DNA of 64,000 nt from an uncultured Clostridia bacterium (GCA_947629945.1 CANRFR010000002.1:519-64518); one strand, 5' to 3'. Shown: positions 2,881-61,831, numbered from the stretch's first letter. The notes: generated from the sequence alone by a model not told the origin. Made by a program: numbers and translations.

Positions 2881-2909
2881 ATTATACACTATTCCCGTTG
2901 ATAATTCAA
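2881..2909 (-). promoter_or_regulatory. SigA promoter of the surface-protein gene
   Basis: TTGAAT-17-TATAAT on the minus strand. Confidence 0.75.
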
Positions 2910-3015
2910 TGTAACATTTAGCCAAAATTTTTAAAATATTTTTGTGTAATTTTTGGTAAAATTTTCTGTAATAAAACCGAAATTACCAAACATTTTAAAA
3001 TTTAGCTAATTTACG

Positions 3016-5466
3016 TTATTTTTTCTTTCTAAAATTCGGATTATCATCGGGCTCGCGCATAATAACATCATAAAGCCGCCGCGTCTTATTGGTCTTGTGC
3101 TTCTTGGATCTCAACATCTCAAGCTCCGAAGGCTCCGGCTCGGGCGGTGCCTCTGCGGACGCTTTGTCCTCAAAAAGACCCCTCTCCTCCGTCCATATAC
3201 CCGCGGGAGCGTTTTCGGCGGTCACACGCATTGGCGGTTTGCCGTCCTCGGAACGGCTTTTTCTGTCGCTTTGGCTATTGATTTGGCTTTTGCTCCGGCT
3301 GCCGCTCAAACTACCGCCGTCTCTGTCGGATTGCTCCAGAACGTCAAAAATGCTGCCGATATCCTTGAACGGCTCTGCCTCGGGCAGCTCTTCCTCAAAG
3401 GTAGTCGCAGAGTCAACCCTACCGCGCGGAATAATGCTCTCCGCTTGAGCCGACGTGACCACGGGCGTGCCCGCCGCCTTACCGTAAGCGCTTATCGCTG
3501 CGGCATTTTTCTTAATAACTTTCGGCTTCGGCTGTCGTATCTCGGGCGGCTTTTTATCGACGGCGCGGCGGCGCGGCTGCTTGATGCTCGGCTTCATATC
3601 CTCCGGAACCTCATCGTAAATGGGAAACGGCGGCTCTTCATCCGGCTCGAACGGCACTTGATTTGCCGCCTGCGCCGACTTCATCGGGAAGTCCTCAACA
3701 AACTTGGGCGTTTTCTCATCAAATGCTTGGAAAGCGTTTTTGCGCGCTTCCTCCTCTTCATCAAGCTCTCGGCGGCGCGCTATTTCCTCAGCCTTTTCGC
3801 GCTTTACGCGCTTTTCCTCTTCAAGATGTTCCTCCAGACGTTTCAAGTCCTCGTACGGACTGCGCTCATGCTCCGGCTGTCGCTCCGGCTTTCGCTCCGG
3901 CTGTCGCTCCGCCTTTTCGGGAATGTTCGGCGGTGCGGACGACGGCTTAAGCGGCGCTCCGAACGGCTGAAAACCCGAGGGGTCGGGAGCTTTCGTATAA
4001 CCCTCGTGCCCGAGACTTTCTCCGTTGCGTATTATATGAGAGATCTGCGGCTTTTCGTTCTTTTTTCGCTGTTTGGTCGGCGATGTGAAAAAGCCCTCTT
4101 TCAGCGCCCGCTCGTCCTCGGGGTCGCGCTCAGGCGGCTGCGGGATAGCGTCGCGCGTTATCCTTTCGGGCACGAACGGCTTAACTACGCGCTCACGCGG
4201 CGCGGAGAGCGGCTCCGGCTCCTTTTTCGGTACCTCTACGATAGGCGTGCTTTTGGTGATATCCACCTCCAGTGAATAGTCTAGGAAACTTTCAAGCTCT
4301 TCGGGAGTTATCTCGCCGTTTTTGACCTTCTGTTTCATCGCCTCCATATAAGTGCGCCAATATTCGTACTCCTTAACGCTCATATCCTTATCGATACGGT
4401 TGTACATCTTATCGGTGACGTCCTTGGACCTTTTCTCCAGAGTTTCTGTAATGGTGGGTTTGGGGTGTTCTTCCTCCCAGATCTCAAGACAAGTCTTGCC
4501 GTTCGGCACAAAGCGCGAGCAATACTCTTGAGGGTGCTCCTTATCGCGCAGGAAATAGCGTCCGCAGCGTTTACATTTGCCCAGCCACTCGCCGTTTTCG
4601 ATCATCGCGTCTATCTCGAGATCTATGGCGGCTTTAAGACTGCACGGCATATAAAGCTTTTCGCCGTAAGTGTCCATTTTTCCACGTACTACGCCGTAAT
4701 TCGATAAATCCTGAGGCAGACCCGCTTTCATTTTCGCAAAAGCGTCCATGGCTATTTGATCGGATATTTCGCTGTAATCGCCAACGTCGGAATAATCTTC
4801 GCTGTAATCGAAATCCGAAAGCACATTACGCACGATATCCTTTGAAACGGTCGGGAACAGGAACGGCGCCGTAGGCACTCTGCCCACGGAAAACGTCTTT
4901 GTAACGCCCAGATCCTCAATGCGGCAGCCCATTTCACGAGCCGTCACGCTGAACGCCAAATCGAAGTAGTTGCGTCTTGCCACGGCGTCCTCGATAGTTT
5001 TTATCGACATTGAGAAGATGAAATCCGATTTGCTCCGCGCGTAATCCTGAACGCGCGCTATATTCAACCATTCGTTGATAGCGCGGTTATAGCGGAAATC
5101 GCACAGCCGCGAGAACACCGCCTTTTCAAAATCGCTTTTGCAGCGGATAAATCTGTTCCACAGTGCGTTTACGCCTATATTATCTCTCCTGCAAACGTAA
5201 TCTATCCAACAATCCAGCACTATTTTTTCATAAACCGTTCTGATGTTGTGTTCGATATAGCAATGCGCCCCGCAGATATCGCGGCGAAGCTCCGCCATAC
5301 GGTCAAGGTCGAGAACGCCCGATTTCAGCGATTCATTACACAGATCTATGGAATGCTTTGCAAAATAAGAAAAATCGAATTCGCAAAAATCCAACAGCGT
5401 TGTAGGATAACGTAACACGAAAATCTCGTTGGAAGTTTTCCCCACGAGCTTCAGCGTTCTCTCCAT
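3016..5466 (-). CDS. DUF6076-like protein with a Cys cluster and long disordered C-terminal tail
   Basis: CKRCGRYF...YCSR...CLE Cys motif; about 400 aa P/E/K/R-rich tail; ATG at 5466 after an AAGGAG RBS. Confidence 0.6.
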   Translation of the reverse strand: MERTLKLVGKTSNEIFVLRYPTTLLDFCEFDFSYFAKHSIDLCNESLKSGVLDLDRMAELRRDICGAHCYIEHNIRTVYEKIVLDCWIDYVCRRDNIGVNALWNRFIRCKSDFEKAVFSRLCDFRYNRAINEWLNIARVQDYARSKSDFIFSMSIKTIEDAVARRNYFDLAFSVTAREMGCRIEDLGVTKTFSVGRVPTAPFLFPTVSKDIVRNVLSDFDYSEDYSDVGDYSEISDQIAMDAFAKMKAGLPQDLSNYGVVRGKMDTYGEKLYMPCSLKAAIDLEIDAMIENGEWLGKCKRCGRYFLRDKEHPQEYCSRFVPNGKTCLEIWEEEHPKPTITETLEKRSKDVTDKMYNRIDKDMSVKEYEYWRTYMEAMKQKVKNGEITPEELESFLDYSLEVDITKSTPIVEVPKKEPEPLSAPRERVVKPFVPERITRDAIPQPPERDPEDERALKEGFFTSPTKQRKKNEKPQISHIIRNGESLGHEGYTKAPDPSGFQPFGAPLKPSSAPPNIPEKAERQPERKPERQPEHERSPYEDLKRLEEHLEEEKRVKREKAEEIARRRELDEEEEARKNAFQAFDEKTPKFVEDFPMKSAQAANQVPFEPDEEPPFPIYDEVPEDMKPSIKQPRRRAVDKKPPEIRQPKPKVIKKNAAAISAYGKAAGTPVVTSAQAESIIPRGRVDSATTFEEELPEAEPFKDIGSIFDVLEQSDRDGGSLSGSRSKSQINSQSDRKSRSEDGKPPMRVTAENAPAGIWTEERGLFEDKASAEAPPEPEPSELEMLRSKKHKTNKTRRLYDVIMREPDDNPNFRKKK

Positions 5467-5485
5467 ATCAACACTCCTTTCAAAT

Positions 5486-6355
5486 TCACTGCGGCGAAGA
5501 GCTTTGCTCCGAGCTTGCCGCCGAGCTTTGCACGGAACTTGCCGCACTTTGTGCAGCGCTGCCCGAAGTAGATTTTACTGTACTTTTCGTTTTATCGACA
5601 AGATACGGATTTTCCTGCTCAACTTTTCCGTCCACCAACAAGACCTCGGTCTGCTTGCCGCTCTTTGTGGAGGTTTTCCACTCCACAAAGTTCTGCGAAA
5701 GGCTCGTGTAAGCCGCAACGTGAATACTCTTACACCCGAAAACCTTTTTCGCCACACCCTGTGGTAACTTGTAATCATCGCCCGTATATTCAACGTAGTA
5801 AGTCATTGTGTTGCGGTCGGGGTAGCTGTCAAGATAGCGCACCAAACGGTATTCGCCGTTTTTGGAAAGGGATTCGTAAGAAGTATCGCGCGTTGACAGG
5901 TCGGGACCCAGCAAATTCAAGTTGCCGATAAATCTCGTAACGCCTATGTGTCCCGCTATGCCTATAACGAACAGCAGCAGATACATTGTGCCAAGTACGG
6001 TTTTCAGCGTTTCGTTTGAAGCATTGACGAAGAACAGCACCAACATAACCACTACAGGCGGAATAATGATATACCAATTTCCAAAGCCGAAAAAAGTCAC
6101 CAAAAACACTATCGGCGGCAAAATAAATGAATTCACGCGCGTTATCACCTGTCTGCGCGACAGAATAAACAGACCAAGCGCCGCAACGTTTATAAACAGG
6201 TAGAGTATAAATGCGGGCGTGGGGTTTTCAAACTGGAAATAATACGCAAAAGTAAGCCACGCTATCCACACCATAAATCCCGTATAACCCCAGCATATCA
6301 CGGCTATCACACGTCTGAACCACACATTCTTAAAAAAAGCCACCAGCTTGTCCAT
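5486..6355 (-). CDS. Hypothetical multi-pass membrane protein
   Basis: About 5-6 hydrophobic segments followed by a soluble domain and a Ser/Ala/Gln tail. Confidence 0.75.
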   Translation of the reverse strand: MDKLVAFFKNVWFRRVIAVICWGYTGFMVWIAWLTFAYYFQFENPTPAFILYLFINVAALGLFILSRRQVITRVNSFILPPIVFLVTFFGFGNWYIIIPPVVVMLVLFFVNASNETLKTVLGTMYLLLFVIGIAGHIGVTRFIGNLNLLGPDLSTRDTSYESLSKNGEYRLVRYLDSYPDRNTMTYYVEYTGDDYKLPQGVAKKVFGCKSIHVAAYTSLSQNFVEWKTSTKSGKQTEVLLVDGKVEQENPYLVDKTKSTVKSTSGSAAQSAASSVQSSAASSEQSSSPQ

Positions 6356-6438
6356 CGTCATTCCCTCTCTTACTTAAATATGTATTAAACTTTACAGGCA
6401 AAAGCGCCCCTTGATTTAAAAATAATTCCACGTATTAT

Positions 6439-6467
6439 ATTGTATAACAAAACACGAAAAAATGCAA
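6439..6467 (-). promoter_or_regulatory. Probable SigA promoter
   Basis: TTGCAT-17-TACAAT on the minus strand. Confidence 0.6.
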
Positions 6468-6498
6468 GTGGTTTTAGTCAATTTCTTAAAATTATCAA

Positions 6499-6529
6499 TA
6501 AAAAATCCCTCATTTATTAAACGAGGGAT
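6499..6529 (-). terminator. Terminator downstream of ftsZ
   Basis: ATCCCTC...GAGGGAT stem with a T-tract on the minus strand. Confidence 0.7.
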
Positions 6530-6549
6530 CTTATAATATGCATAAAATA

Positions 6550-7755
6550 TCAGCTTTCCTTGCCCTGATTGAACTTGCGTAACAAGCTGTCAATATCGTT
6601 GGCGTCGCCAAAGCCGCCCGAAAACGTCATGTGACCTGACTGCGCCGCAGGCTGTACTGCTTCCTCCGCAAGATCGAACTCAAGAGTCTCTTCCGGAGTG
6701 GGTCCCTCAACAGGAACGTTCGGCGAAGCCACGCCAGTAAGTACCGACGGCTGGGGGTCCTCCGCAAAATCCGTTGCCACAACGATAAGCGAGATCTCGT
6801 CGTCCGCCAGATCGTCGTCGAACACGATACCGCACTTGAACTTGGCATCCGCGTTGAACTTTTCGGAGATCTCCTTGGTAAGTCCGTCGAATTCCTCAAG
6901 CGGGAACGAGGACGGAATGGAAACGTTGAGCAATCCGCGCTTCGCACCGTCTATAGAGGTCTCGAGCAGCGGGCTGTTGAGCACCTCGTTCAAAGCCTCG
7001 TCTATCTTGTTGTCGCCCTTGCCCTTACCGATAGCGATATGCGCTATGCCGCTTTCTTTCAAAGCCATCGTGATATCCGCGAAATCAACGTTGATATAGC
7101 CGTCGCCTTGCAGCAGCTTTATCATACCCGTTACCGCCTTGCAGAGGATATCATCAACCTCGCCGAACGCTTCTTTCAGCGAAACCTTGGGCTTGGAGCC
7201 TTTAAGCTCGCGAACGCGGTTGTTCGGGATAATGATAAGCGCGTCGACATACTTCTTCATCTCGGAAATGCCGCCGATAGCCATCTGCATTTTGGCTTCG
7301 CCCTCCCAATCAAAGGGCTTTGTCACAACTCCTACCGTAAGTATATTTCTTTCCTTAGCCACGCTTGCCACAACGGGAGCAGCGCCCGTACCCGTGCCGC
7401 CGCCCATACCCGCTGCAACGAACAACATCGAAACTCCGTCCAAAACAGCCGCGATATCATCGCGGTTTTCCTCGGCGGAAGCTTGTCCTTTGGCGGGGTC
7501 GTTACCCGCGCCCTGTCCGCGCGTAGTTTTGCGTCCTATCTGAATACGCTTCATCTTGCTGCCGTCTTTTTTTCTCAAAGCGGCAACATCGGTGTTCGCG
7601 ATAACATACTCAACATCCAGCACTCCGCCGTCGACCATGTGCGCCGCAGCGTTTCCGCCCGCGCCGCCTACTCCAAACACCATAATTTTGGTGTCCATTT
7701 GGAAGTCGTCGCTCAAATCAAATCCATCATCAATATCATCAATAGCAAAAGCCAT
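6550..7755 (-). CDS. ftsZ: Cell division protein FtsZ
   Basis: GVGGAGGNA, tubulin signature GMGGGTGTG, INVDFAD T7 loop. Confidence 0.97.
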   Translation of the reverse strand: MAFAIDDIDDGFDLSDDFQMDTKIMVFGVGGAGGNAAAHMVDGGVLDVEYVIANTDVAALRKKDGSKMKRIQIGRKTTRGQGAGNDPAKGQASAEENRDDIAAVLDGVSMLFVAAGMGGGTGTGAAPVVASVAKERNILTVGVVTKPFDWEGEAKMQMAIGGISEMKKYVDALIIIPNNRVRELKGSKPKVSLKEAFGEVDDILCKAVTGMIKLLQGDGYINVDFADITMALKESGIAHIAIGKGKGDNKIDEALNEVLNSPLLETSIDGAKRGLLNVSIPSSFPLEEFDGLTKEISEKFNADAKFKCGIVFDDDLADDEISLIVVATDFAEDPQPSVLTGVASPNVPVEGPTPEETLEFDLAEEAVQPAAQSGHMTFSGGFGDANDIDSLLRKFNQGKES

Positions 7756-7804
7756 ATTACTCTCCTCCTGCTTTTTTGCCTCTTAAATACAATACCCTTT
7801 TTTA

Positions 7805-7833
7805 ATTATACCACATCTTGACCGAAAATGCAA
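7805..7833 (-). promoter_or_regulatory. Internal SigA promoter of ftsZ
   Basis: TTGCAT-17-TATAAT on the minus strand in the ftsQ-ftsZ gap. Confidence 0.75.
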
Positions 7834-7920
7834 GTCATTTTTCCGATAAATTTATGAATATCGGCAGACATTTTTCGTGGATTATGCCCAAACCCGTTTC
7901 TTTCAAGAAAATTTGCATGC

Positions 7921-9135
7921 TTATTCGGTGAGCGCCGGGTCGGTTATCGGTCCCGTAACGGAGTCAGGCTCCGATGTTGGATCAGGGTAGGGTTCCGGCT
8001 CGGGATCAGGCTCCGGTTCGGGGTCCGGTTCCGGTTCGGGGTTCGGTTCCGGCTCGGGATCCGGTTCCGGCTCGGGGTCTGGCTCCGGCTCGGGGTCTGG
8101 CTCCGGCTCGGGGTCTGGCTCCGGCTCGGGGTCTGGCTCCGGCTCGGGAGCGGGAGTTGACTCAACAGCGGACTGAGATGCGGGCGCGGATACTGTTGAA
8201 GATACTGACTGCGAGGAAACGGGTTTGCTCGTTTGAGGCACGGAATTATTCTTTACGGGAACTTTTTCGGGATTTGTAAGCAGCAGCGTAACATGCTCGT
8301 CCTTGCCTATCTGATTTTCGATGATCTCGATTGCCACAAGCAGCTTGCTTTCGACCTCTTCTGCGGGACCGAGTTCCAAAATTACTCGATCCTCCACAAC
8401 TATCTTGACCGAAAACCTATCGGTAATATCCACTTCCGTGACGTTCTTCAGACCCGTTTTTTCCACGGCTTTAAAAATGATATCGGGGATCTCGGTCTTT
8501 CCGTCGGTTTTGGATTTCAGCCATGTGCCGATCTCAAGGTTTTCCGCGTCAAAGCCCTTAACGACGGGAAGCCCGTCCGGCTGACAATGCTCAAGTATTT
8601 TACCCTTGTGCGAGATTGCCGCCGTAACGCCGTTATCGCTTATGCAGTATTGCTTTTCCGCTTCAACAACCGAAATGTTGATATTTGTCGGGAACGATTT
8701 TTTCACTTCCGCCTCATCTACGTAAGCCAAAGAATTTATGATGTTATCGCGGGCTTCGGAAGTGTTTATACGCATAAGATTTTCGCCGAGCTGCAAGCCC
8801 GATTTTTCCCTTATCTCGTCCGCCTGATACCTTTCGTTTCCCGAAACGTTTATGTGACTGCACTTAAAAAGCACGGTATTGGCTAGAATGATAACGACTA
8901 CGATTACGACAATAGCTGCCAGAATATAATACAGCGAATAGTTGCCGCCGCGAAATTTCTTCTTCTTTCGCGGACGGCTCTTATCGCGTACGGACGTTTC
9001 GGCATTTTTGCGCACGGAACGCACCGTGGAGGAATTCGCGTACATCTCTCTACGCTCGCGGGTAGACCGGGCGGTTTTTCTTTTTAAGTCCTCGGGCGTT
9101 GTTCTTGAACTGCCTCGGCTTTTTTTCCGTACCAT
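7921..9135 (-). CDS. ftsQ: Cell division protein FtsQ/DivIB
   Basis: Basic N-terminus, single TM, POTRA-like region (INVSGNERY...[14 protein letters not shown]); position between murA and ftsZ. Confidence 0.85.
7987..8148 (-). repeat. 18-bp tandem repeat x9 encoding PEPEP[D/N/Y]
   Basis: ggctccggctcggggtct-type units in the 3' end of ftsQ. Confidence 0.95.
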
Positions 9136-9183
9136 TTTTGTCACTTCCTTTTATGAACTGCCGGAATAAATTGTATTCCGAAA

Positions 9184-10458
9184 TCATACTCTTTTAATAT
9201 CAGCGCCTATCGAACGCAGCAAGCTTTCAATGCTCTCGTAACCCCTGTCGATGTATTGCAGACCGCTTATCTCGCTTGTACCTTCGGCGGCAAGCGCCGC
9301 GATTACAAGCGCCGCGCCGCCGCGAAGCTCCGCCGCGCGGACTTTCGCGCCAGAAAGCTGTTTTACGCCCTGCACAACGCAGACCCTGCCCTCGGTTTTA
9401 ATAGAAGCGCCAAGACGCACCAGTTCGGGAACGTGCCTGAACCTATTTTCGAAAATAGTCTCCACAAAAACACTCGTACCCTCTGCCGTGGTGCAAAGCG
9501 CAGTGAACGGCGCTTGAATGTCAGTCGGAAACCCGGGGTACGGCATAGTTCTGACGGTTGGAGGCGCCGTGCAGCTTTTATTGCCGCTTTTTCCGCTGAT
9601 ATATATTTTCCCGCCGCCGTAGGTGTATATACGCATTCCCATTGCTTCGAGCACCTGCAAAAAGCCCGTCATGTGCTCGGGACGGCAGTGCGTTAGTATC
9701 ATCTCACCGTGAGTGATCGCCGCCGCGCAAAGGTAAGTTCCCGCGGCGATCCTGTCGGGAATAACGCTGTGTTCACATGGCTCCAGACGCTCAACTCCGT
9801 CAACAGCGATAACGCTTTCACCCGCGCCGCGTATTCTAGCGCCGCATTTGTTCAGAAAATCGGCGAGATCGACTATTTCGGGTTCACGCGCGGCATTGTG
9901 TATCTCGGTCTCTCCCTTGGCGGTAACGGCGGCTAACAGAATGTTCTCGGTAGCGCCCACGCTTGGGAACGACAGCACTATCTTAGCGCCGTGCAGACCC
10001 TTTCCGACGGTACAGTCGAGATAACCGTGCTGCTCGGTTATCTCCGCGCCCATTTGACGAAGCGCCGAAAGATGGAGGTCGATGGGTCTGGCACCCAGTT
10101 CGCAGCCGCCCGGAAACGTCAGCTTACAGCGCCCCGTCCGCCCGAGCATTGCTCCCAAGAACACTATCGAGGAGCGCATTTCACGCATCAGATTATCCGG
10201 TATCTCACTGCCGAATACATTTGACGCGTCTACTGTTATGGTATCCCCGCTGCGGCGGCATTTACATCCGATATGCGTTAAAATTCTGCAAGCAACGTCC
10301 ACGTCGGTAAGCGCGGGACAGTTGTGCAAAACGGTCTCGCCGTGCGCGAGAACGGACGCCGACAGCAGCGGAAGCGCGCTGTTTTTCGCGCCGTGAACTC
10401 TCAGTTCTCCCTCCAGGTGTCTGCCGCCGTTTACAATAAGTTTTTGGCGATCGCTCAT
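9184..10458 (-). CDS. murA: UDP-N-acetylglucosamine 1-carboxyvinyltransferase
   Basis: GAKNSALP, PGGCELGARPIDLH (catalytic Cys), PYPGFPTD, FENRF. Confidence 0.96.
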   Translation of the reverse strand: MSDRQKLIVNGGRHLEGELRVHGAKNSALPLLSASVLAHGETVLHNCPALTDVDVACRILTHIGCKCRRSGDTITVDASNVFGSEIPDNLMREMRSSIVFLGAMLGRTGRCKLTFPGGCELGARPIDLHLSALRQMGAEITEQHGYLDCTVGKGLHGAKIVLSFPSVGATENILLAAVTAKGETEIHNAAREPEIVDLADFLNKCGARIRGAGESVIAVDGVERLEPCEHSVIPDRIAAGTYLCAAAITHGEMILTHCRPEHMTGFLQVLEAMGMRIYTYGGGKIYISGKSGNKSCTAPPTVRTMPYPGFPTDIQAPFTALCTTAEGTSVFVETIFENRFRHVPELVRLGASIKTEGRVCVVQGVKQLSGAKVRAAELRGGAALVIAALAAEGTSEISGLQYIDRGYESIESLLRSIGADIKRV

Positions 10459-10587
10459 ATCATCACCCTTTCAACAATGATACTGCATAATATGTTGAAT
10501 CGGGCAAAATGTGATTACGGTTTACGATAAACGCGTATTTCTTGCTGAATTTATATTGATTTCCGCGTTACACAAATGTTTAGTCGA

Positions 10588-11721
10588 CTATTTAAAACTA
10601 TCCTCGCCGCAAAGCTCCACGATTTCTTTAAGAATAATATCGGCGGCGTTAGCCTTACGCATTTTGCCGGCGTTTTCCTCCATAAGCCGCAAGCGACCTC
10701 TGTCCGCGTAGAGCTTTGACACCTCGTCCACCAGCTTCGCCTTGGTGAGATTTTTGTCCTCGATTAGTACGGCGGCATTTTCGTTGACCAAAGTCATCGC
10801 GTTGTAGTATTGATGATTTTCGGCGGCAGCGGGATACGGCACAAGCACCGACGGTCTGCCTATCTCGGTAAGCTCCGTTATCGTCATAGCTCCCGCGCGG
10901 GAGATGATAAGATCCGCCGCGCACATACAGGTATACATATTATCGATATACTCCTTAAAGATCAAGTGACGCTTGTCCTCGCGAACATTCGCCTCCTTTA
11001 AGGCGCTGAGAAACAGATCCTTGTTTTTGCCGCCGTAAGCGTGAATGTGATTTATCTCGCCCGTTTTTTGTTCCCACGCGATAAGCTCGGCGACGGCGGA
11101 CGTAATTTTGTTCGCGCCCAGACTTCCGCCGAACGAAAGCACAGTAAAGCAGTCCGGAATACCCAGCCGCTTCCGTGCCGCCGACCTCTCTTCAATGGGA
11201 ATGTTCGTTCGCAGAGGATTGCCTGTAACAACGCACCGCGACTCGTCTTTAAGATATTTTTTTGCGTCCTCGGTCGCCAACAGCACCTTGTCTGCTTTAT
11301 CGGACAAAAGCTTAGTAGCCGCGCCCGGATAAGAGTTGCTTTCGTGAGTGACCGTCTTTATTCCCAACGCAACAGCTTGCCGCAGAACCGTTCCCGTGAC
11401 GTAGCCGCCCGTTCCGACAGCCAAATCGGGCTTGAACTCCTTGATGATCTTTCGAACGGCGAGTTTTGCGGAGACGAGATAGCAATACGCCGCCTTAACG
11501 TTTCTCAAAACAGACTTCGGCGAAAAGTCGCGCTGAAATCCCGACATCTCCACGCCCTTGAAATTATAGCCCGCTTTGGTCACCAAGCGGCTCTCCATAC
11601 CGTTGGGCGTTCCGATAAACAGTATTTCCGTTTCGGGGAATACCTGTTTCATTTTATCCGCGATGGCAAGCGCGGGATTTATATGCCCCGCCGTGCCGCC
11701 CGCCGCAAAAATCACCTTCAT
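10588..11721 (-). CDS. murG: Undecaprenyl-PP-MurNAc-pentapeptide GlcNAc transferase
   Basis: GGTAGHINPA, GTGGYVT, GNPLR, GGSLGA, SRAGA motifs. Confidence 0.96.
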   Translation of the reverse strand: MKVIFAAGGTAGHINPALAIADKMKQVFPETEILFIGTPNGMESRLVTKAGYNFKGVEMSGFQRDFSPKSVLRNVKAAYCYLVSAKLAVRKIIKEFKPDLAVGTGGYVTGTVLRQAVALGIKTVTHESNSYPGAATKLLSDKADKVLLATEDAKKYLKDESRCVVTGNPLRTNIPIEERSAARKRLGIPDCFTVLSFGGSLGANKITSAVAELIAWEQKTGEINHIHAYGGKNKDLFLSALKEANVREDKRHLIFKEYIDNMYTCMCAADLIISRAGAMTITELTEIGRPSVLVPYPAAAENHQYYNAMTLVNENAAVLIEDKNLTKAKLVDEVSKLYADRGRLRLMEENAGKMRKANAADIILKEIVELCGEDSFK

Positions 11722-59427: not shown

Positions 59428-59964
59428 ATGAACGCGGAACAAAACGCGCTTGGACGCGTACTGTGGATATCAAGGGCGGCATATTCGGCAATCGTCGAGG
59501 GAGAAATCTCGCTTAACGTTCCCGCGCTGCTTGACAGTCTTTCGGCGATAATGTCGCATTTGAACAACGACAAGCAGCCGATGTCAAAACTTATGCGGCG
59601 CCTGAAAAGCGAGATAAAAGCGAAAAACAAAGCGTTTTACGTCACTGCCAAGCAGTACTTCTCGAAAATTTACCCCATTCTCGACTACGATTTTGAAAAA
59701 GCCGCGAAACACGTTCCCGCGCTGATTTTCGGCAACGACAAAATATGCGCGCAATATGTGGCGGGCGACAAAAGCCGCGTGAAAGCGATGTGCGAAGCAA
59801 TGAAAAGCTACCCGGGCTTCCTGTTCGGAGAGTTTGAGGCGCTGTCCGATAAACAGTTCTACGACCTCGTTTTCGGGTACTATCCAAAGCTGTATGAAAA
59901 AGAGGATTTTATGGGAGAAATGCGCCACCTGTTCTCCGACGGCGAACCGCCGAAGCAGTCTTAA
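59428..59964 (+). CDS. Hypothetical protein
   Basis: 178 aa ORF with GAGGTG RBS; no family recognised. Confidence 0.7.
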   Translation: MNAEQNALGRVLWISRAAYSAIVEGEISLNVPALLDSLSAIMSHLNNDKQPMSKLMRRLKSEIKAKNKAFYVTAKQYFSKIYPILDYDFEKAAKHVPALIFGNDKICAQYVAGDKSRVKAMCEAMKSYPGFLFGEFEALSDKQFYDLVFGYYPKLYEKEDFMGEMRHLFSDGEPPKQS

Positions 59965-59968
59965 ACAA

Positions 59969-60012
59969 AGTTCCCCCTTTTTGTGACGAACGCGTTTCAA
60001 AAAGGGGGACGT
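59969..60012. terminator. Bidirectional terminator
   Basis: CCCCCTTTTTG/CAAAAAGGGGG stem between convergent genes. Confidence 0.75.
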
Positions 60013-60019
60013 TTTATGC

Positions 60020-61255
60020 TCAAAATCCGAAAAGACGGTTTTCGTAGCGCTCAAACGCGTATTCCAACGCGTCCAAGCTGTCAATGTTCGAGGTGCCGTT
60101 ATCAAGTCGCACATCTTTGTGAAGATCGCGCTCGTCCCAAACGGCGTTTTGCAGCGCATCAATAACGTGAACGCACTCGTTCAGCACGAAAAAGCGCTTG
60201 GCGGCGATAAGGCGGTTCAGCATATTGATTCGGGTGTTGATCGGCTTTTTCAAAGCGTTTTTTACCTCAACGCCGTATTTTCCTACGGCTTGACGAAAAC
60301 TCTTTATCAAAAGCTGCTCGGCACTGTCGCAATAAGCGGCTTGAAGCGGCGAAAAATCGCTTTTGCATTGCGTGACGAACAACTCGAAATTGTTGATGAG
60401 ATTTTCTGCGGAGCGGTTTCGCTTGTCGTAATACTCCGAAAGTACGTATAAGTTTCTGAAGCCCGCGTCTATTCCGACCAAAACGAACGCCGAAGCGCTG
60501 CCGTTGCCGCCGTAATCCACGCCGACTGCTGCGGTCATCAGTCTGTTTTTTTCCAGCCGCTCCTTAAGCTCCGCGCGCGTGACGATGTTCGCCGCCGAAA
60601 AGCTCTCGTAAACTCTTCCCTCGGCGGCGACCCATTTTCCCAATATGTAACGGTCGTAGAAAACGCCGTGAAACTCCTTTTTCAGCGAACCCACATATTC
60701 CGCGGGCAGAAAATCGTTATCGTCCAGCGTAAATTTCATCGAGAGCAGGTCAAGGCTCTTGTCATCGAGATAATTGCGCTTTACCCAGTGCGACGGGTTA
60801 TCGGGGTTTGTCGTCGCAAATAGCTTTGCGCCTTGTTCCGAAAGCCGAGAGAGCAGCATTACGAAAAAATCCTCGCCGAACAAAGTCAGCTCGTCGCAAT
60901 AGGCGCCCATAAGCGTCATTCCGCGTATTTTGCTTTCGGCTTCGGAATTTGACGCGCCCTCCAAATAAACTCTTCTGCCGAAAAGCAAGCCCTCTTTTTT
61001 GTATTCGCTGTATTGAAAACAATTGCCAAGCAAGCTTTTCAGCGGCTCCAGAACGTTTCGTTTGAGCGTCGTCAAAGTTTTTCCGCACATCAGATAAGCG
61101 CTGTCCGGAGGACTTTTCGCCAACCAGAACGCCCACATTATCATTGAAATATATGTCTTTCCGCTGCGGACGCTGCCCTCGAATATGTTCAAACGGCGGA
61201 GCTTTCCGTTTTTCAACAGGAGCATAGCCTGCCGCTGTTTTGGTGAAAAAGTCAT
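60020..61255 (-). CDS. Phage terminase large subunit (PBSX/Terminase_3-like)
   Basis: Walker A EGSVRSGKT, Walker B GAYCDE, coupling motif TTNPD.P.HW, GKWVAAEG, nuclease GVDYG, YCDSAE, D.LDALEY. Confidence 0.9.
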   Translation of the reverse strand: MTFSPKQRQAMLLLKNGKLRRLNIFEGSVRSGKTYISMIMWAFWLAKSPPDSAYLMCGKTLTTLKRNVLEPLKSLLGNCFQYSEYKKEGLLFGRRVYLEGASNSEAESKIRGMTLMGAYCDELTLFGEDFFVMLLSRLSEQGAKLFATTNPDNPSHWVKRNYLDDKSLDLLSMKFTLDDNDFLPAEYVGSLKKEFHGVFYDRYILGKWVAAEGRVYESFSAANIVTRAELKERLEKNRLMTAAVGVDYGGNGSASAFVLVGIDAGFRNLYVLSEYYDKRNRSAENLINNFELFVTQCKSDFSPLQAAYCDSAEQLLIKSFRQAVGKYGVEVKNALKKPINTRINMLNRLIAAKRFFVLNECVHVIDALQNAVWDERDLHKDVRLDNGTSNIDSLDALEYAFERYENRLFGF

Positions 61256-61515
61256 TTTCCGTCCTCCTTATCCATATCGTTAAACGCGCCGATAAGCTCG
61301 CTGAGCTTGCCCTCGGAATTCGTCGAAGCATTTTCGGAAAGCATTTCAAAAACGATCTTCCACACCTTGGCTAGCTTTTCAAGATCCTTTTCGGCTAAGG
61401 CTCTTATAAGCTCGCGGTCGTTCAACAGCTCCGCGAAATTCTCTCCGAACGCCGTAAACTTCGGCGTATTTTTTTCAAAATATTCCTTTGCTGTCATTTT
61501 CTTTCTTGTTGCCAT
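61252..61515 (-). CDS. Small protein coupled to terL, possible terminase small subunit
   Basis: 87 aa; 4-bp overlap with terL; helical, acidic C-terminus; GAGGAGG RBS. Confidence 0.55.
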   Translation of the reverse strand: MATRKKMTAKEYFEKNTPKFTAFGENFAELLNDRELIRALAEKDLEKLAKVWKIVFEMLSENASTNSEGKLSELIGAFNDMDKEDGK

Positions 61516-61831
61516 AGTTTCCTCCTCAAATCAACGTCGGTTCGTTTTTTCTCCGCACATAAAAAAACAAAGACCGCTTTATTATATCAAAGCTTTTTCA
61601 ATATAATATTAACAAAGTAACATCTGCACAAAACTGAATTTTTGACATTATATACTTTTTCAACAAAAATCTCTTGTAAAAAATCGAAAAAATTGTCAAA
61701 AAAGCAAGGCAGTGATGTTTTCAAAGTTTACAAAAAGTTAAAGATAGTGTGTTATAATTGTGATAAAATAGGATAAACAGAACAGCAATAGGACACGTCG
61801 AATATGGACGTTTTGAATAGGAGTTGCACAA

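Follow-up and report, generated by a model that had tools for sequence, protein, structure and literature searches.

A solitary terminase gene pair as the probable packaging module of a split, vertically inherited, GTA-like particle system in uncultured gut Clostridia

Given that terminases work only with a portal and a procapsid, an intact phage terminase pair with no prophage around it raises the question of what it is doing among housekeeping genes. We addressed this question for a pair located in a 64,000-nt stretch of DNA (hereafter the window) from an uncultured Clostridia bacterium (GCA_947629945.1), which is part of contig C2 of a 206-contig, 2.75-Mb MAG with 97.75% completeness (G000 below). 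A preliminary description of the window had taken the pair to be not a decaying prophage but a packaging module that had been domesticated, and had listed a dispersed gene transfer agent (GTA)-like system, a satellite, an anti-phage decoy and a repurposed ATPase-nuclease as options. Our survey set comprised 100 species representatives of the focal genus, which is represented by MAGs of uncultured Oscillospiraceae/Ruminococcaceae recovered from the guts of rabbits, mice, ruminants and humans (Hadza); numbers with the prefix G denote genomes. The results favor the first option, and we assign a probability of about 0.7 to the reading that the pair serves as the packaging module of a GTA-like particle system that derives from a phage, is fixed in the chromosome and is inherited vertically.

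The larger ORF of the pair is an intact PBSX-family large terminase (TerL), with catalysis predicted from its motifs. It scored 153 bits against the TIGR01547 profile (cut-off 105), which covered residues 23-403, matched phrog_2 at 1e-43, and exceeded the Pfam cut-offs for Terminase_3 and Terminase_6N, while Terminase_3C remained sub-threshold (19.8 bits vs a Pfam cut-off of 26.7). The ATPase motifs (Walker A GSVRSGKT, Walker B AYCDE and coupling motif ATTNPD) and the acidic positions of the nuclease (VDYGG, CDSAE and a D..D close to the C-terminus) were invariant or nearly so across 47 orthologues. The pair is flanked by hpf (S30AE) and an unmatched ORF on one side and by patatin, rpsO and pnp on the other, and its GC content is similar to that of the surrounding DNA. 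ORFs, profiles, motifs and family matches thus bear out the earlier account of a TerL with intact motifs and an overlapping small partner, lying between hpf/hypothetical and patatin/rpsO genes (Table 1). The unmatched ORF had no match in Pfam, PHROG or NCBIfam, and the corresponding loci in other species, with G250 as the closest among them, contained no homologue. The hairpin beyond the terL stop codon has 10-bp arms (59973-59982 and 59999-60008) with T-rich tails on both strands and is plausibly a bidirectional terminator, as proposed earlier, though not a strong consensus match. Searches of contig C2 for a portal, a capsid and a tyrosine integrase returned zero matches. The earlier statement that no prophage surrounds the pair holds for the window only, as the genome as a whole carries several prophages.

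Table 1. Coordinates of the features discussed. Unprefixed positions count from the first letter of the window; prefixed positions refer to extracted loci (L) or contigs (C) of the named genomes.
Feature	Position	Strand	Basis or remark
TerL, PBSX-family large terminase (ATPase + RNase-H-like nuclease), 411 aa	60020..61255	-	TIGR01547, phrog_2, Pfam
p87, 87 aa, all-helical, candidate small terminase subunit	61252..61515	-	4-bp overlap with terL
Shine-Dalgarno GAGGAGG, 5 nt ahead of p87 ATG	61521..61527	-	sequence read directly
Promoter-like element: TTCAG-TTTTG-TGCAG (61624-61638), 12-nt spacer, TAATAT (61606-61611)	61606..61638	-	
Hairpin between convergent stop codons of the 178-aa ORF and terL, CCCCCTTTTT ... 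AAAAAGGGGG	59973..60008	.	terminator-like, both strands
Unmatched 178-aa ORF between hpf and terL	59428-59964	+	no family match
c2/c1 genes beside p87-terL	L020:2326-4846 and 10 other loci		
Permuted operon of G236	L169 (G236:C1:186000-200000), 2895-11472		
DUF6017 genes	L138:507-1745 (G015), L132, L136, L144; G000 contig C181:2607-3782		
C4 prophage late region (G000)	L041:109-14708		two TerS-like genes, TerL, portal, minor head protein, scaffold, capsid, tape measure

The small partner, p87, was directly upstream of TerL in all 16 orthologous loci with long flanks, p87 matches were found in 42 of 47 TerL loci, and the pairing is also kept in sister genera. Its conserved core is KDLEKLAKVWKLVFE, and an AF2 model built with 32 orthologues in the alignment showed three helices (pLDDT 74). 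We sought to recognize p87 as a small terminase subunit (TerS) by homology, and this attempt yielded nothing specific: there was no family match in Pfam, PHROGs or NCBIfam, no credible match in a profile search against PDB sequences, no Foldseek match in the PDB, only generic helical matches (Z at most 5.4) in a VIA-wide fold search, and no BLASTP similarity to the TerS of the paralogous prophage on contig C4. Since family, PDB-sequence and fold matches are absent, we infer the TerS role of p87 from gene position and co-conservation only. p87 is possibly a small terminase subunit without a DNA-recognition domain, by analogy with FpGTA of Faecalibacterium prausnitzii, whose TerS-like protein is small and has no evident DNA-binding domain, and with RcGTA, whose TerS lacks sequence-specific DNA binding (Borodovich et al., Nat Commun 2026; PMC12946183).

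Full-length, stop-free TerL orthologues with 65-86% identity were detected in approximately 85 of the 100 genus species, and prophage TerL paralogues formed a separate identity band at or below 56%. Outside the genus, only 2 of 150 other genera of the family had a TerL of orthologue grade (65% and 58% identity). The p87-terL pair is single-copy. In the 16 loci with long flanks, no phage genes lay beside it; its neighbors there included groEL, the CCA-adding enzyme, ABC transporters and a SpoIID/PG-binding protein. The neighborhood differs between species, with changes that track clades: the patatin flank of the window was common to just G016 and G250, the two closest relatives among the species examined, and 11 of the 16 loci had in common a flank, termed c2/c1, in which an unknown protein of ~386-390 aa and a SpoIID-like protein with three PG_binding_1 repeats are divergently adjacent to the pair. 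In the focal genome the c2/c1 genes sit on contig C15, apart from the pair. We considered c2/c1 as a lysis module and set this idea aside, adjacency being its sole support.

Across unsaturated species pairs, TerL had a dN/dS of 0.02-0.08, and most p87 values fell below 0.15. The maximum-likelihood trees built from the full-length PNPase, TerL and portal sequences of 21 genus genomes agreed in their clades: any pairwise comparison gave 12-13 of 18 bipartitions in common, and 2000 label shuffles gave at most 3 common bipartitions, with TerL terminal branches about 10 times as long as those of PNPase. This congruence argues for vertical inheritance, and together these data indicate that the pair and the head cluster described below are inherited vertically in the genus, with purifying selection on TerL and p87. 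PNPase identity to the focal genome was unsuitable as a clock, its N-terminal 228 aa being too conserved (ranks are flat at 93%); the N-terminal identity ranks showed no rank correlation with those of TerL, and full-length trees were used instead. The preliminary description had proposed synteny, dN/dS and TerL phylogeny as checks, and each came out on the side of domestication: sister species carry the orthologous pair among housekeeping genes, TerL is under strong purifying selection, and the TerL tree follows the host tree.

A whole-genome search for unlinked structural genes, likewise proposed earlier, identified a second, genus-conserved locus that supplies the portal and procapsid on which a terminase depends. 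Each of five near-complete genus genomes contained exactly one phrog_533 portal (~360 bits), heading a syntenic, terminase-less cluster. The portal is followed by a scaffold-like ORF, a phrog_422 major head protein, two head-tail adaptors and a phrog_1194 protein, and the cluster ends in a ~500-aa tail protein (phrog_6616) and a ~430-aa protein (phrog_19291), with an alpha/beta-hydrolase gene and phoH downstream. Tape-measure and tail-tube genes are absent from the cluster, so the particle would be short-tailed, and no integrase, replication or excision genes were found beside either the pair or the head cluster. Portal orthologues (57-87% identity) occurred in approximately 85 of the 100 species: TerL and portal orthologues were both present in 78 species, 7 had TerL only, 7 had the portal only and 8 had neither, corresponding to a co-occurrence odds ratio of 12.7 that is inflated by kinship and incomplete genomes. 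Among the exceptions, G003 (97% complete) has the head cluster and no PBSX-family TerL, and G233 (99% complete) has TerL and no portal orthologue. In the focal genome the head cluster lies on contig C68, adjoining an RpiR-family regulator and a flavoprotein, and this contig ends at the start of the gene following the second adaptor. Searches with proteins of the closest species did not recover any tail genes from the assembly; as C68 ends inside the cluster, this reflects an assembly gap and not a demonstrated loss. The capsid proteins, when looked up in public databases, were named, if at all, just "hypothetical protein".

The relationship between the two loci became apparent from sister genera. 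In G171 and G058, which represent two sister genera, and in MAGs from rabbit named "Ruminiclostridium sp.", a single stretch of ~9.3 kb comprises the genes in the order p87, TerL, portal, scaffold, capsid, three small genes, phrog_1194, tail protein and a ~460-aa protein. The operon of G171 ends in a holin and has a cardiolipin synthase gene directly upstream, and no integrase gene was found next to the sister-genus operon. One member of the focal genus, G236, has a permuted single operon (portal through tail, then p87 and TerL) with one copy of the motif described below before the portal, which could be a stage on the way to the split or the outcome of a later re-joining; in all other genus members examined the pair is detached from the head genes. 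We infer from these gene orders that the ancestral state was a single operon, later dispersed, which would have been cut between terL and portal in the focal genus. Three stages are thereby visible, namely the single operon of the sister genera, the permuted operon of one species and, in the remaining species, two loci, with the promoter element duplicated. A domesticated phage operon seen in the midst of its dismantling would illustrate the step by which GTAs turn into dispersed host regulons.

The two loci are also connected by a promoter-like element. A rare direct repeat, T[GT]CAG-N5-TGCAG, whose spacer is A/T-rich in most cases, was located 56-125 nt from p87 on the upstream side across loci and is followed after ~12 nt by a TAtaAT-like hexamer; the window copy of the repeat is TTCAGTTTTGTGCAG (minus strand), and the element as a whole lies ~110-125 nt upstream of p87. 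The motif was present upstream of p87 in 22 of ~34 informative distinct loci, approximately 7 more having a near-miss variant, and upstream of the portal in G015, G011, G008, G002, G003 and G236, with a variant in G000. A search of five genomes with TGCAGWWWWWTGCAG gave 3-6 copies per genome and 22 in all, and the reversed control gave 0. Further copies precede an XhlA-like/holin/GH25-endolysin cassette beside spoIIP (G015 and G011) as well as an amidase endolysin and an M23 peptidase in G002, and a few stand ahead of genes with no relation to these, namely a glycosyltransferase and an unknown 198-aa ORF. The common motif may reflect co-regulation of the packaging, head and some lysis loci and gives a direct handle for finding the regulator. 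Copies of TGCAGTAATTTGCAG were also seen inside the aspartate aminotransferase coding region (L133, L135 and L145, from G011, G008 and G003, respectively); these are probably coding coincidences and not regulatory. A separate cassette of the focal genome, on contig C5 (5849-7014), consists of an orphan holin (79 aa) and a GH25 endolysin (307 aa) with no TGCAG repeat upstream and no phage genes nearby; its neighbors, judged from their first residues, are presumably rapZ, whiA, ferredoxin and clpC. This cassette may be the lysis module of the particle system in G000.

The motif also precedes DUF6017/replication-initiator-like genes, in six of six genomes examined, and is therefore not specific to the particle system. 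The DUF6017 family (r0), whose N-terminus resembles a phage replication initiator, was detected in 64 of 101 genus genomes, with up to 8 matches per genome that are 30-70% identical. In the focal genome, the DUF6017 gene lies on a 3.8-kb contig, C181, beside a 641-aa ORF that we take to be relaxase-like from its first residues. We tried r0 as a dedicated activator or conserved part of the system and rejected it as patchy, multi-copy, divergent and adjacent to that relaxase-like ORF. Being multi-copy, patchy and probably mobile, the DUF6017 genes are not a fixed component of the particle system; they probably belong to mobile elements. A doubtful extension of these observations is that the TGCAG-N5-TGCAG repeat is the operator of the DUF6017/Rep-like proteins of such elements, through which resident plasmids or integrative elements, and not just the host, would switch on the split GTA-like regulon of the host and gain a ride in its particles. 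If true, mobile elements would engage in cross-talk with a particle system that the host has domesticated.

Several phage-derived elements coexist in the focal genome, and alternative functions of the pair have to be weighed against this background. G000 carries several prophage-type portals and capsids, including those of a complete-looking prophage on contig C4 whose TerL is 52% identical to that of the window and whose portal and capsid belong to phrog_533 and phrog_422; the domesticated element thus has a relative in the C4 phage lineage. A further SPP1-type portal match (161 bits) at C161:3680-4675 contains two in-frame TAG codons and could represent a decaying prophage or a recoded phage. 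One could accordingly suppose that the host terminase, with or without the head genes, disrupts or exploits related resident siphophages in a PICI-like manner, for example by cutting or mis-packaging phage concatemers or by occupying phage procapsids. Prophages of the genome and its relatives do possess TerL (~50% identity), portal (phrog_533) and capsid (phrog_422) of the same families, and TerL and the head cluster sometimes occur without each other. However, the terminase co-diverges and co-occurs with its own portal, capsid and short-tail set, the sister-genus operon joins it to that set and a holin as a self-sufficient particle kit, one flanking ORF run against a defence-gene library gave no match, and 40-52% identity to the phage partners makes cross-recognition doubtful. 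We therefore consider such anti-phage hijacking unlikely.

The variable neighborhood of the pair and the presence of the motif before Rep-like DUF6017 genes typical of mobile elements might be explained by a satellite or cryptic element, either cf-PICI-like or a small mobilisable module, that moves horizontally with the aid of helper phages. Such an element is nevertheless very improbable, as integrase, replication and excision genes are absent beside the pair and the head cluster, the pair is single-copy with a TerL tree congruent with that of PNPase, and the neighborhood changes track clades (the c2/c1 flank in 11 of 16 loci, the patatin flank in the two closest relatives). The few near-complete genomes that retain just one locus would fit an old prophage remnant in non-packaging use, in which a stand-alone TerL ATPase-nuclease or a DNA-free capsid compartment was kept and the loci are unrelated. 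This, too, is quite unlikely in view of the joint conservation of coupling motif, nuclease, portal, scaffold and adaptors, and the common promoter motif and ancestral single operon argue for one system. Among the options of the preliminary description, the dispersed GTA-like system is thus the one supported, and a satellite, a decoy or a repurposed ATPase-nuclease fits less well and is not needed.

The GTA-like reading is in line with what distinguishes these classes of elements. As in GTAs, phage-derived head, tail, packaging and lysis genes are chromosomal and come without integrase, replication or lysogeny modules, and they are vertically inherited under purifying selection (dN/dS ~0.02-0.1; ~85 of 100 species). 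A prophage is at odds with the lack of a tyrosine integrase on contig C2, the housekeeping flanks and the 80-plus stop-free orthologues distributed genus-wide, and a PICI or cf-PICI with the lack of an integrase/replication module beside either locus and with trees that follow the host. The unlinked clusters, the selection and the host-like tree likewise support the earlier view of a domesticated packaging module as opposed to a decaying prophage. We describe the system as a domesticated podovirus of GTA-like type, in which the packaging and head operons are split and have a motif in common. Our confidence is high for the architectural and evolutionary claims and moderate for the prediction that the system makes DNA-transferring particles.

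In the mechanism that we propose, a factor reading the TGCAG-N5-TGCAG element would turn the loci on together. Besides the pair, these would comprise the head/neck/short-tail operon and, in at least some species, the XhlA-like/holin/endolysin cassette, both located elsewhere. The products of the head operon would assemble into procapsids, and TerL would dock on the portal, possibly aided by p87, which has no recognisable DNA-binding domain. TerL would then cut and pump host DNA by headful packaging with no sequence preference, and the short-tailed particles would be released by holin and endolysin for transfer of the packaged DNA. The loci described here amount to a complete candidate GTA gene set for an uncultured gut genus of ~100 species in animals and humans, and they indicate that "orphan" terminases in Clostridia genomes are not to be taken as prophage debris.

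Four known systems come closest to the element. cf-PICIs are mobile, carry integrase and replication genes and use helper-phage tails. They resemble the focal element in having a compact block that encodes TerS, TerL, portal and capsid of their own, whereas the focal element lacks an integrase, is vertically inherited and encodes its own tail proteins. PBSX of Bacillus subtilis, which packages host DNA, has a TerL of the same family (TIGR01547), and a further feature in common is the XhlA-like lysis protein (phrog_937) in the lysis cassette associated with the focal element. PBSX spans ~28 kb in one piece, has a contractile tail and encodes a repressor and a sigma-like activator of its own, in contrast to the short-tailed, split focal element. 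In RcGTA of Alphaproteobacteria, the terminase genes lie inside the main cluster, and the regulators GafA and CtrA are known. The focal element is likewise domesticated, vertically inherited and spread over several loci, although it comes from an unrelated lineage and RcGTA has a siphovirus-like morphology. The several loci of RcGTA, itself domesticated and vertical, are under common host control (PMC12946183).

The closest known system, judged on gene set and order and not on sequence homology, is FpGTA. Its operon I (~10-10.5 kb), at 2536737-2546346 of CP030777 and with RCH50849.1 and RCH50851.1 among its proteins, encodes a TerS-like protein, TerL, portal, scaffold, major capsid and conserved hypothetical proteins, and a second locus contains tail/further structural and lysis genes, with replication and integration genes absent (PMC12946183). 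FpGTA particles measure ~40 nm, are apparently short-tailed or tail-less, were characterized by proteomics, and contain packaged DNA of 8.4-8.9 kb (PMC12946183). Long-read sequencing of gut virus-like particles also revealed GTA-like packaging in Oscillospiraceae and other Ruminococcaceae, with genes assigned for Faecalibacterium only (PMC12946183). At the sequence level, we examined distant TerL relatives from the family and order (35-42% identity) as a link to FpGTA and discarded them, as they belonged to ordinary long prophage-like chains with GC contents of 37-52% and not to Faecalibacterium. A capsid search of a 5.8-billion-protein set gave, among the matches listed, just close relatives with at least 60% identity. 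FpGTA and the focal element differ in that the terminase pair of the focal genus lies apart from the head genes behind a separate copy of the promoter-like motif, and in that particles and packaged DNA have been observed for FpGTA, while the focal element is represented by genes. Compared by gene content, both have a gut Clostridia host, the same parts list, a podovirus-like character and more than one locus, and in gene order and size the single 9.3-kb operon seen in the sister genera matches its FpGTA counterpart.
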